The notes under the pieces are model-generated. The model was given only the letters and a program-made list of their open reading frames with translations. It was not told where the DNA came from and did no database searches. Shown here piece by piece: positions 26,719 through 29,849 of a stretch of DNA of 42,429 nucleotides; position 1 is the stretch's first letter; each line of letters starts with the position of its first letter. The DNA comes from Candidatus Omnitrophota bacterium (GTDB taxonomy: Bacteria > Omnitrophota > Omnitrophia > Omnitrophales > Aquincolibacteriaceae): positions 1 through 42,429 of the forward strand of contig CAIJDY010000107.1 of NCBI GenBank assembly GCA_903819565.1, in the 5' to 3' direction. The position numbers and the translations under genes were made by a program.

Positions 26719-26847
26719 CCCACAAGTAAACTTTCGGGTTAGCCTTCAGTTTAAATATTTTTATTACCCCACAAAAAATCGACATAAATCATTCAAATCA
26801 AAAGGTTTATGTTAAAAAAATAGAAAGTAAAAATTTTTAGTATGCGT

Positions 26848-26876
26848 TTGACAATTCTAAATTGTGATGTTATGGT
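26848..26876 (+). promoter_or_regulatory. sigma70-type promoter for the unknown two-gene unit
   Basis: TTGACA-17 nt-TATGGT with extended -10 TG, in a ~230-nt AT-rich region. Confidence 0.6.
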
Positions 26877-26893
26877 TCCTTTAGAGTGTCCAA

Positions 26894-26918
26894 ATAGCAT
26901 ATAACATCTATATGCTAT
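26894..26918. promoter_or_regulatory. Perfect 10-5-10 inverted repeat downstream of the promoter (operator or 5'-UTR hairpin)
   Basis: ATAGCATATA-ACATC-TATATGCTAT; ATGCTATA recurs at 26922-26929. Confidence 0.5.
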
Positions 26919-26955
26919 AAAATGCTATATAAAGACTTGAAAGGCAAAATGTAAA

Positions 26956-27750
26956 ATGAACGGAAAAATGGAGCAGGTAAAGATCCCGTATCTGTACTTC
27001 AATTTCTCGAATGAGGAGCGCGAATCCGCGATCCACTATCTCCTCGAATGCATTCTCAAGGCGCGGGACAAAGGGCGCGGACTTCAAAAGGTTCGGGGGT
27101 TCGATGAGGATGTGAACATTTATCTCGCGCACCTGCTTTTTGCCATTACGCTTCCAGAATATCACGACATGGCGGATCCGTTCCTCTCTGCCCGACCCGA
27201 GCAGGTTTTTGAATGGGTCCGGGACACCGAGGATCCGATGCTTCGCTATTTTATCTTCAAAGTGAATGCGGATAACCTGCTGGTTCAGTCCACGGTGTTT
27301 AATCCGGATTCCGAACTTGCGAAAAGATTCCCGTTCAAAAAAGACAATACCGAAGCGGTCAACGAGGAAGCGATGGCGGCGGTTCTCTATTACAATCACG
27401 CCTCCCGCTGCCATGAAGGACTGCATGAAAAGAAGACCGGCGTGGGGGAGGTTCTGGAGAAGATCGCGGGGGACCTTGGGCTTTACCAGAAGATCCTCGC
27501 GGGCGTCCGGTCCGATTATTTCAGGTTGATCGATAGCTTTCGGGACCAGGCCTTCCAGCATTTTTATGCGAAGATGGACGGGTACGAGAAACAATACCTG
27601 AAAGAGATCAAGATGGGGCATTTTCTGGAAGCGTACCAGGGATGGCTTCTTCAACGCGATCCTGTGCAGAAAAGTAAAGTGCTGTCTTTGGCCCAAGAGC
27701 TTCAGCGGCTGGATCCGGAATTCCGTTTTGACAACACAAAACTCAACTGA
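26956..27750 (+). CDS. Uncharacterised helical protein (264 aa)
   Basis: Long ORF with genome-typical codon usage; conserved-looking motifs DEDVNIYLAHLL, FKVNADNLL, FLEAYQGW, LQRLDPEF; no function recognised. Confidence 0.85.
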   Translation: MNGKMEQVKIPYLYFNFSNEERESAIHYLLECILKARDKGRGLQKVRGFDEDVNIYLAHLLFAITLPEYHDMADPFLSARPEQVFEWVRDTEDPMLRYFIFKVNADNLLVQSTVFNPDSELAKRFPFKKDNTEAVNEEAMAAVLYYNHASRCHEGLHEKKTGVGEVLEKIAGDLGLYQKILAGVRSDYFRLIDSFRDQAFQHFYAKMDGYEKQYLKEIKMGHFLEAYQGWLLQRDPVQKSKVLSLAQELQRLDPEFRFDNTKLN

Positions 27751-27782
27751 CGAAAGGGCTCCAAGGAGTCCGTAGGTCCCCA

Positions 27783-27947
27783 ATGAGCGAAACCCACTTG
27801 CAATATGAGGTCGAATCTAAGCGGAACGAATTCTTGGATGTTTATTCGCTCTATCTAATGACCCGTATTTCGCTTATCCGGGATGAGGCTCGCTTCAAGG
27901 CGTACGAGCTCCGTTTCCTCGATCCGAAATTCGTCACCCCGTTCTAA
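27783..27947 (+). CDS. Small 54-aa protein, paralog of the C-terminal domain of the upstream 264-aa protein (absent from the ORF track)
   Basis: MSETHLQYEVESKRNEFLDVYSLYLMTRISLIRDEARFKAYELRFLDPKFVTPF; aligns without gaps to the upstream C-terminus; AAGGAG and TAGGT SD-like sequences upstream. Confidence 0.8.
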   Translation: MSETHLQYEVESKRNEFLDVYSLYLMTRISLIRDEARFKAYELRFLDPKFVTPF

Positions 27948-28064
27948 AAACCTCTCTTGAAGGGGGCTTCCCCGAACAGTGTTCCCAAGGCATGAGAAAT
28001 TTGCTATAATTCTTCCTCCTAATCCAAAAAGACATGATTGATGAACCCATAGCAGGGACCACCT

Positions 28065-29261
28065 ATGACAAAACAGCCCGTTTCTTTTGATCCTCCGGGA
28101 CGTTTGAAAAAATTGCCCCCTTATCTTTTTGCGGAGATCGACCGCAAGAAACGCGAACTGGTCGCGAAGGGAAAGGACGTGATCGACCTCGGCGTGGGCG
28201 ATCCGGACATTCCTACAGCGGATTTTATTATTGAAGCCCTCAATGCCGCGGCGAAGAACCCGCGGAACCACCGTTACGCTTTGGACCAGGGTATGCCGGA
28301 GCTGCGACAGACGATCCGGGACTGGTTCCAGCACCGTTTCGGCGTGCATCTCGATCCGGACAAAGAGATCCTGCCGCTCATCGGTTCCAAAGAAGGGATC
28401 GGGCATTTGCCGCTGGCGGTGCTGGATCCCGGACAGGTGTGTTTGATCCCGGACCCGGGTTATCCGGTCTATCGTTCGGGAACCCTTTTTGCCGAAGGGA
28501 TCCCGTACACGATGCCGCTTTTGGAGAAGAACCGTTATTTTCCGGACTTTGACATCATTCCCACCGACGTGCTTCAGAACGCCAGACTTATGTTTCTGAA
28601 CTATCCGAACAATCCGACGTCCCAGGTGGCGGACAAGGCTTTTTTTGAGAAAGCGGTGGCGTTCGCGCTCAAGCACGGGATCCTGATTGCTCATGACGCG
28701 GCTTATTCTGAAATGTGCTACGAGGGGCTCAAGTCGCCGAGCATTCTGGAAGTTCATGGCGCAAAAGACACCGCGGTTGAACTTTTCTCGCTTTCCAAAA
28801 CCTACAGCATGACCGGTTGGCGTATCGGTTTCGCGGTTGGGAACGCGCAGGTCCTTGCGCTTTTGGCCAAGGTGAAGTCGAACCTGGATTCCGGGATATT
28901 TCAGGCCATTCAGATCGCCGGCATGAAGGCGCTTCAGGAGGGGCAGATGACCCTCGAAAAAAATCTGAAGATCTACCAGGAGCGCCGCGACCTTTTGGTG
29001 CAGGGCTTTCGCGATCTCGGCTGGAAGATCGAAGCGCCGAGGGCCACGTTCTATTGCTGGATTCCCGTGCCGCCGGGCTACACCTCTTCGGAACTTGCCC
29101 TGAAATTCCTGGAAGAACTCAACGTCGTGGTGACGCCGGGGAACGGTTTTGGCCCGAACGGGGAAGGGTATTTCCGCATTTCCCTGACTGTGGCGGAATC
29201 GCGGATCATGGAAGCCCTCGACCGGATCAAAAAAAGCCATCCTCATTACTGTAAATTCTAG
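28065..29261 (+). CDS. dapL: LL-diaminopimelate aminotransferase-type class I/II PLP aminotransferase
   Basis: LPPYLFAEID, DLGVGDPD, GSKEG, DPGYPVY, NYPNNPT, HDAAYSE, SLSKTYSMTGWRIG; extended -10 TGCTATAAT at 28002-28010. Confidence 0.8.
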   Translation: MTKQPVSFDPPGRLKKLPPYLFAEIDRKKRELVAKGKDVIDLGVGDPDIPTADFIIEALNAAAKNPRNHRYALDQGMPELRQTIRDWFQHRFGVHLDPDKEILPLIGSKEGIGHLPLAVLDPGQVCLIPDPGYPVYRSGTLFAEGIPYTMPLLEKNRYFPDFDIIPTDVLQNARLMFLNYPNNPTSQVADKAFFEKAVAFALKHGILIAHDAAYSEMCYEGLKSPSILEVHGAKDTAVELFSLSKTYSMTGWRIGFAVGNAQVLALLAKVKSNLDSGIFQAIQIAGMKALQEGQMTLEKNLKIYQERRDLLVQGFRDLGWKIEAPRATFYCWIPVPPGYTSSELALKFLEELNVVVTPGNGFGPNGEGYFRISLTVAESRIMEALDRIKKSHPHYCKF

Positions 29262-29339
29262 GGGCAAGTGACCCAGGACAAGGGGCCAGCGGTCAGAACA
29301 CTTTTTCGATTTTTTCTTGTCCACCGACCCGGAGTTATT

Positions 29340-29849
29340 ATGCCTATCGTCTTCATTGGTGTCGGATCGAATCTTGGCGACCGGGAAAACTTTTTCCGGA
29401 TGGCCGCCCTGGAAATTCAAAACGAGGCCGGGATCTGTGACCTGAAGTGTTCTCCGGTCTATGAAACGGAACCCGTGGGCGGGGAGGGACAGCCGCTTTA
29501 TTGGAACGCGGTGTGGAGCTTCACAACGGAACTGGTGCCGCAGGTCCTTTTGCATAAGCTTCATGATATCGAGATGAAGGCTGGCCGCCGGAGGAAGGTC
29601 CCGAACGAAGCGCGTGTTCTGGATCTCGACATCCTTTTTTACGGGGACAGCGTTTTGAAGCAAGCAGAACTCACGGTCCCTCATCCCCGGATCCCCGAAC
29701 GGGTTTTTGTGCTGGCGCCGTTTTGCGACCTGGCGCCGGAATTCGTGCACCCGGAAGTGAAAAAGAATATGCGGCAATTGCTGGAAGCGTGTCGCGCGAG
29801 CCATGGCGGTTGCGGCGGCGTCAGGCGATTAACAGACGGGAAAGGGTAG
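29340..29849 (+). CDS. folK: 2-amino-4-hydroxy-6-hydroxymethyldihydropteridine pyrophosphokinase
   Basis: FIGVGSNLGDR, SPVYETEP, IE...GR, ARVLDLDILFY, LTVPHPR, RVFVLAP; GGAG SD before ATG 29340. Confidence 0.95.
   Translation: MPIVFIGVGSNLGDRENFFRMAALEIQNEAGICDLKCSPVYETEPVGGEGQPLYWNAVWSFTTELVPQVLLHKLHDIEMKAGRRRKVPNEARVLDLDILFYGDSVLKQAELTVPHPRIPERVFVLAPFCDLAPEFVHPEVKKNMRQLLEACRASHGGCGGVRRLTDGKG

Follow-up and report, generated by a model that had tools for sequence, protein, structure and literature searches.

A 54-amino-acid ORF of Omnitrophota belongs to an order-wide cassette in which a gene for a helical protein is followed by stand-alone copies of its C-terminal hairpin domain

The 54-aa open reading frame that follows an unannotated 264-aa gene in the window (the whole stretch of 42,429 nucleotides analysed here, contig CAIJDY010000107.1 of the Candidatus Omnitrophota bacterium assembly GCA_903819565.1) is a genuine gene under constraint and represents the B member of a cassette of three genes that spans the order. 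The cassette is a new unannotated family and an unusual form of a known principle, the domain-only paralogue encoded beside its parent: a large gene specifying an all-helical protein is accompanied by small genes, A and B, that encode copies of its C-terminal two-helix domain. A first-pass annotation, made from the letters of the DNA alone, had placed the two frames on the forward strand at 26956-27750 (264 aa) and 27783-27947 (54 aa), where both were found, and had called the smaller one a hidden ORF. It was indeed missed by the 60-aa cut-off used, but its homologues are already called as genes in public records, for example NCBI KTQ49_06865 beside the large gene KTQ49_06860. The features of the locus are as follows.

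26848-26876, + strand: promoter-like site TTGACA-17 nt-TATGGT with TG (consensus scan, 10/12 matches; a consensus match only)
26956-27750, + strand: large gene, ORF of 264 aa, all-helical product, unannotated family restricted to Omnitrophota
26995-27567, + strand: N-terminal helical domain, residues 14-204, with invariant polar and aromatic residues (alignments)
27583-27729, + strand: C-terminal two-helix hairpin domain, residues ~210-258, from which the small ORFs were copied (model and hhalign)
27756-27771, + strand: stem-loop around AAGGAG, 6-bp stem (one G-U pair) and 4-nt loop
27783-27947, + strand: small gene B (54 aa), encoding the hairpin domain as a separate copy (ORF, BLASTP, profiles)
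27982-28010, + strand: promoter-like site TTCCCA-17 nt-TATAAT with TG, before the aminotransferase-like gene (consensus scan)

The gapless alignment of the small ORF with the large C-terminus that the first-pass annotation had drawn is recovered by BLASTP (large residues 213-256 against small residues 7-50, ungapped, 16/44 identical, 24/44 positive, E 4e-6), and it is significant against shuffled controls: its Smith-Waterman score is 66, where shuffled versions of the small protein score 27.4 +/- 4.5 (0/5000 reach 66, z 8.6), and 0/2000 shuffles of the large protein reach it. Profile comparison with hhalign matches the large C-terminus to B with a probability of 98.3% (E 2.5e-14) and to A, a second small paralogue of ~58 aa that sits between the large gene and B in most relatives, with a probability of 97.4% (E 1.4e-11); A and B match each other at 69% (E 4.4e-5), and control comparisons against the N-terminal domain gave E 0.16 and 0.26. 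The large-family profile alone is enough to detect the small ORFs that lie downstream (many genomes, E 1e-4 to 1e-7) and, conversely, the B and A profiles match the large-gene tail in many genomes. A candidate similarity of B's N-terminal extension to the large protein's N-terminus was rejected, having no profile support (E 0.16). At other loci B is ~64 aa long (start codons of the small ORFs were chosen by rule), with a core motif FLDVYSLY ... LDPxF. It shows 8 invariant residues across 26 sequences from one order and is intact in 43/61 genomes (E 1e-20 to 1e-34), so that the small ORF does persist in relatives. A sequence identical to the 54-aa protein is present in the ESM Atlas, and lake DNA contigs identical to the window span B with 0 differences (4 runs, region 26900-28060) and yield no within-population variants. 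A search for RNA evidence listed 6 runs from 3 studies, none of them RNA.

Searches with the large protein returned 321 homologues at E <= 0.001 (among 638 candidates, 90% clusters), the named ones all being 'hypothetical protein' of Omnitrophica or Omnitrophota, and a profile search returned 379 representatives at 50% identity, nearly all ~250 aa long. Pfam and NCBIfam scans gave nothing above any cut-off for the large or the small protein, and Pfam at E up to 10 gave just Gemin6, HTH_TANC1 and ANTH, all far under their cut-offs; PADLOC assigned 0 families to 4 proteins, the PHROG scan matched neither protein, a PDB sequence search with the large-protein and B profiles found nothing below E 0.1, and matches in the ESM Atlas are unnamed Omnitrophota clusters only. 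The earlier statement that neither protein falls in a described family thus stands after Pfam, NCBIfam, PADLOC, PHROG and PDB-sequence searches, and a full-text literature search, covering listings and abstracts, returned no description of the large/A/B family. Pfam PF15739 (TSNAXIP1_N), weak in 40/59 members with a best E of 2.4e-4, was considered and rejected as sub-threshold helical similarity; in 8 members checked singly it scored 12.5-16.7 bits over residues ~152-215, against a gathering cut-off of 27 bits.

The large gene occurs in 55/61 related Omnitrophota genomes, including 34/37 of the high-quality ones. In an even sample of the phylum, near full-length matches were found in 77/201 genomes, which cover almost all of the window's order (family f1, 54/56); outside that order the gene was found in both genomes of one sister family of the same class and in a few families of other classes (f24, 4/5; f49, 1), and 4 further genomes of the 201 match the large-gene profile solely via a small stand-alone domain.

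In the window, genes for a 7TM-HD protein, YbeY and RecO lie 5' of the large gene on the same strand, and an LL-diaminopimelate-aminotransferase-like gene, folK, panC and panD follow the 54-aa ORF, all these names being a reading of the translations. recO and the large gene are separated by an AT-rich gap of 238 bp, which holds the first promoter-like site (26848-26876). In that gap (26719-26955), 3' of the promoter-like site, ATGCTATA occurs twice at ~26914-26935, possibly as an operator. recO lies upstream on the same strand in 39/40 large-gene loci, the 40th being cut at the contig start, and the aminotransferase-like gene is mostly downstream of the cassette (40 loci); the large gene occupies a single locus per genome in this recO-linked synteny. 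Its fixed place after ybeY-recO is the sole contextual hint to function and may merely reflect conserved gene order.

Among the 55 genomes with the large gene, both A and B are present in 31, B only in 10, A only in 9 and neither in 5; at least one small copy thus accompanies the large gene in 50/55. An HMM tally of 40 loci gave A and B at 20, B only at 9, A only at 7 (one at a contig end) and none at 4, numbers to be read with the A and B profiles having been built from the same loci later tallied and with the genomes being related, not independent. The gene order large-A-B is invariant across the 40 loci. B lies <=2 kb from the large gene on the same contig in 40/41 cases (in the remaining one a contig break intervenes, and B starts at base 19 of the contig that follows), and A lies <=2 kb from it in 40/40; the conserved adjacency predicted for the pair is borne out. 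The first-pass description of a protein/microprotein pair was right about homologous neighbours but overlooked A, present in most relatives and missing in this genus: the window's genome is among the 10 with B only, as are the other two species of its genus, and in the window's own assembly (84% complete) A is found nowhere and B solely at this locus. The two small proteins carry different charges: the 27 A proteins are without exception basic (net charge +2 to +9, averaging +6.1), while the 29 B proteins span neutral to acidic values from 0 to -7, averaging -3.2.

Exceptions to the cassette run in both directions. The large gene occurs without A or B in G014, G017, G029, G034 and G035 (completeness 94-97%), and G041 (91% complete) and G046 (83% complete) retain B while no large gene was detected in them; neither partner is therefore strictly obligate, and the persistence of B in the latter two genomes argues for a role of B independent of the large protein. 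In G041 (C72, locus L049, 2516-2894) recO is followed by a ~380-bp gap, B and the aminotransferase-like gene, and an HMM search found no large-gene remnant at the syntenic place; in G046 the cassette locus is rearranged. Seven loci of the distant families f11, f24 and f49 have the large gene with its tail and no adjacent small copy. The domain also occurs by itself. Three f22 genomes of another class (G186, G198 and G079; L043-L045), in which the large gene was not found, carry a lone domain ORF of 84-99 codons, which adjoins a Macro-NUDIX or NUDIX gene and has its best-scoring match (E 5e-12 to 2e-7) in the tail part of the large-protein profile. G205 has an extra stand-alone hairpin-domain ORF (C18, L046, 3029-3220) far from its large gene, flanked on one side by a gene for a helical protein of 270 aa and on the other by AAA_5, Hsp20 and CDC48 domain genes, and G040 and G152 have extra hairpin-domain copies on other contigs.

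Between the window's genome (G000) and its nearest species (G002), B has dN 0.041 and dS 1.30, a ratio of 0.03, and the large gene has a dN/dS of 0.09; dS is saturated in all pairs except this closest one, on which the dN/dS values rest. Over the hairpin core, mean pairwise identity in the same 20 genomes is 0.61 for B, 0.45 for A and 0.41 for the large C-terminus, making B the best conserved copy of the domain; that of the N-terminal domain in these genomes is 0.55. In a quick tree of 104 hairpin sequences (55 columns), A forms one clade (SH-aLRT 99) and B one clade (91), each branching by taxonomic family, with the large-protein tails unresolved around them and the B branches shortest. Since each clade branches by family, the duplications predate the diversification of the order. 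The old duplication under purifying selection proposed for the small ORF accords with both the low dN/dS and these clades that follow taxonomy. A and B each look like a partial copy of the large gene's 3' end, made separately from the other, and the comparisons support vertical inheritance of the cassette in a fixed housekeeping synteny.

The junctions between the genes suggest joint expression. In the window a 32-nt spacer separates the 264-aa and 54-aa ORFs and holds AAGGAG at 27763-27768, 14 nt before the ATG. The hairpin into which the first-pass annotation had set this motif, and from which it had drawn translational coupling, is present at 27756-27771; its fold is not notable (-16.3 kcal/mol against -12.3 +/- 2.6, z -1.55, with 14/200 shuffles folding equally well), and the large-to-B spacer is 130 nt in the nearest species, G002. 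Because the fold is not unusual and the spacer differs in this way, we do not read the stem-loop as a conserved coupling device. In many relatives A starts ~20 nt inside the end of the large gene or overlaps it by 4 nt (ATGA), and gaps between A and B are mostly 0-25 nt; coupling would be better shown by these short or overlapping junctions than by the stem-loop. A consensus scan found no promoter-like site between the large gene and B, and no terminator-like site was reported between 27947 and 28065, so that the two ORFs look like one bicistronic unit, of which the promoter-like site at 27982-28010 is likely the 3' limit.

The AlphaFold2 model of the large protein (59-row alignment) is all-helical with a mean pLDDT of 82.6, and its C-terminal hairpin consists of a long helix (174-233) and a second helix (236-252). 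Modelled alone, the N-terminal domain reached a pLDDT of 82.7 and a pTM of 0.80. Alignment shows 20 invariant residues in this domain, including H59, D93, K102, N104 and D106, for which reason we expect it to do something specific. A Foldseek search of the N-terminal domain, as the first-pass annotation had proposed, gave a best E of 0.28, and the whole model gave 0.31, so that no fold was assigned. A VIA-wide comparison of the whole model returned only generic hairpin matches to residues ~200-264, with Z up to 7.3. The N-terminal model superposes over ~75-100 residues on TPR-like and alpha-solenoid scaffolds (Acl4, FKBP52 TPR, SNAP), the best being Acl4 (Z 8.1, rmsd 2.9, 96 residues aligned) and the other repeats giving Z 6-7.5; the domain differs from them in having no Pfam TPR match, and the resemblance is at background level only, values of Z ~8 being common for helical models according to the structure-alignment tool's own description.

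The explanation we favour, and to which we give an even chance, is that B is a helical-hairpin subunit, co-expressed with its partners, in a housekeeping assembly specific to the lineage, both the co-assembly and the housekeeping role being what we infer. A and B would have arisen when part of the large gene, at its 3' end, was duplicated in tandem, and the three products share a ~45-residue helix-turn-helix hairpin ending in an LDPxF-type tail. A lone helix-turn-helix of 45 residues would be unable to bury its hydrophobic face; exposing that face, the hairpin should be stable only when bundled, and it is therefore read as an assembly module. The copies would pack together: acidic B would associate with basic A, with the large protein's tail, or with both, and the resulting bundle of four to six helices would serve as a tether for the conserved helical domain at the large protein's N-terminus. 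Co-transcribed and translationally linked as the genes would be, B would behave as a stoichiometric subunit, not as an antagonist under its own regulation. In the window's genus A has been lost, leaving B alone beside the large gene.

We favour this subunit reading because the genes are tightly linked in an operon, A and B are oppositely charged, the cassette is inherited vertically within a housekeeping synteny, and B is conserved better than the other copies; we hold it about as probable as not and place it ahead of both a SinI-like antagonist and binders of a third partner. SinR-SinI (PMC3163267) offers a precedent for helical hairpins that join in a four-helix bundle. Counting against it are the 5/55 genomes that keep the large gene without A or B, the 2 that have B without the large gene, and the 7 loci of f11, f24 and f49 that have no small copy beside the large gene. 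A more extended version, which we advance tentatively and consider doubtful, would make the hairpin an autonomous, Omnitrophota-restricted module and B the core of a housekeeping complex, into which the large protein, as an adaptor, would plug its TPR-like domain via its own hairpin, with A as a charge-matched co-subunit. If true, the lineage would possess a cellular machine of its own, assembled from three two-helix units that are paralogues of one another.

We consider it unlikely that the small proteins are instead antagonists of the SinI type, in which case the large protein would oligomerise through its C-terminal hairpin and B (and A) would cap it, breaking up the homo-oligomer or giving it another use and thereby switching the large protein's activity. 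In SinR-SinI of Bacillus subtilis, as described in PMC3163267, helices hook into an intermolecular four-helix bundle and sinI is under separate control. The architecture is alike in that a small protein, encoded beside a larger one, shares its C-terminal helix pair and is thus homologous to its neighbour's two-helix oligomerisation domain, and either small gene of the cassette can be lost without loss of the large one, as expected of a modulator. SinR, however, is of Xre HTH type, whereas the large protein has a helical domain of ~190 residues in that place, with no recognisable DNA-binding or other output domain in Pfam scans; no HTH_3-type Pfam match was found in the window protein, 10 further relatives or 59 members (among 25 of 37 families listed), and no SinI-domain match in the window proteins or in the 59 members among 25 of 37 families listed. 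The cassette further departs from SinR/SinI in its two small paralogues of opposite charge, downstream and tightly coupled, in being near-universal in one order, and in that B can outlive the large gene; the tight linkage, with no promoter-like site between the genes, is unlike the separate control of sinI. B is also more conserved than the domain it would mimic (0.61 against 0.41), and it is still present in 2 genomes in which no large gene was detected. These last two observations are likewise hard to square with the pure decoy or dominant-negative inhibitor put forward by the first-pass annotation.

The hairpin might alternatively dock onto a common third partner, protein or nucleic acid, which B, A and the large protein would bind separately and possibly in competition, without binding each other, a possibility that we also judge improbable. 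The stand-alone copies of the domain away from the large gene (f22, G205, G040, G152) and the presence of B without the large gene in G041 and G046 fit such independent small proteins, and the strongly basic A could bind nucleic acid. Strict adjacency, fixed order and the opposite charges of A and B are, in contrast, more typical of subunits that bind each other, and beyond recO and the aminotransferase-like gene the neighbourhood of the 40 loci offers no conserved candidate for the third partner.

A toxin-antitoxin or defence pair, with a toxic large protein neutralised by B, is very improbable: the two-gene unit with a small second gene and the lack of a known function for either protein would suit it, but neither protein matches a toxin, antitoxin or defence family in PADLOC, Pfam or PHROG, the genes occur as one copy per genome in recO-fixed synteny (39/40) with vertical inheritance, neither patchy, mobile nor multi-copy, and the large gene occurs without any small gene in 5/55 genomes, so that co-occurrence is not obligate. 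The antitoxin-like partner suggested for the 54-aa protein is set aside on the same grounds, each partner being able to exist alone. That the ORF is a chance frame or the decaying remnant of a duplication, for which its length of only 54 aa might speak, is refuted for practical purposes by its intactness in 43/61 genomes, a dN/dS of 0.03 and 8 invariant residues.

SlrR and SlrA are paralogues of SinR and SinI, and further domain-only paralogues that join or poison oligomers are Hha/YmoA and H-NST with H-NS, GpsB with DivIVA, and the plant 'microProteins'. The latter are alike in that a short protein amounts to little beyond a larger one's oligomerisation module and acts through it; Hha/YmoA, H-NST, GpsB and the microProteins are unrelated in sequence to the present family, and their parents have known biochemical outputs. 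We know of no fixed parent-copy-copy cassette among those truncated-paralogue systems. Omnitrophota are abundant, uncultured and very small bacteria with many conserved genes that have no assigned function. A cassette so strongly constrained, and matching nothing described, therefore appears to mark core biology specific to the lineage. It would offer a clean natural example of a bacterial gene shedding stand-alone copies of its own assembly domain and, because its three paralogues differ in charge and rate and natural 'knock-outs' of each exist, it makes the hypotheses of subunit and decoy directly testable. It also illustrates that the best conserved among a set of related genes can be an ORF of fewer than 60 codons.

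Several minor features of the family and locus were recorded. A single stop codon (TAG or TAA) interrupts the frame of the large-gene match in G024 (C229), G043 (C47), G157 (C19) and G202 (C4), and in G202 the open frame stops before the hairpin (211 aa); these cases may be pseudogenes, split genes or assembly errors. Two antisense ORFs of the window, 26908-27783 (- strand, 291 aa) and 27855-29804 (- strand, 649 aa), overlap the large and aminotransferase-like genes and, with translations that are low-complexity and arginine-rich, look like shadow frames of the + strand genes. Many divergent lake contigs (depth up to ~150) align solely with 27203-27308, where the large gene is most conserved, and several other Omnitrophota that carry the family therefore share these samples. 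B is shortened to 48-57 aa in the window's genus, in G011 and in G031 (L001-L003, L005 and L006), all of which are without A, and the shortened form lacks the ~12-residue N-terminal extension, a hydrophobic stretch followed by acidic residues, of most B proteins of 64-66 aa.
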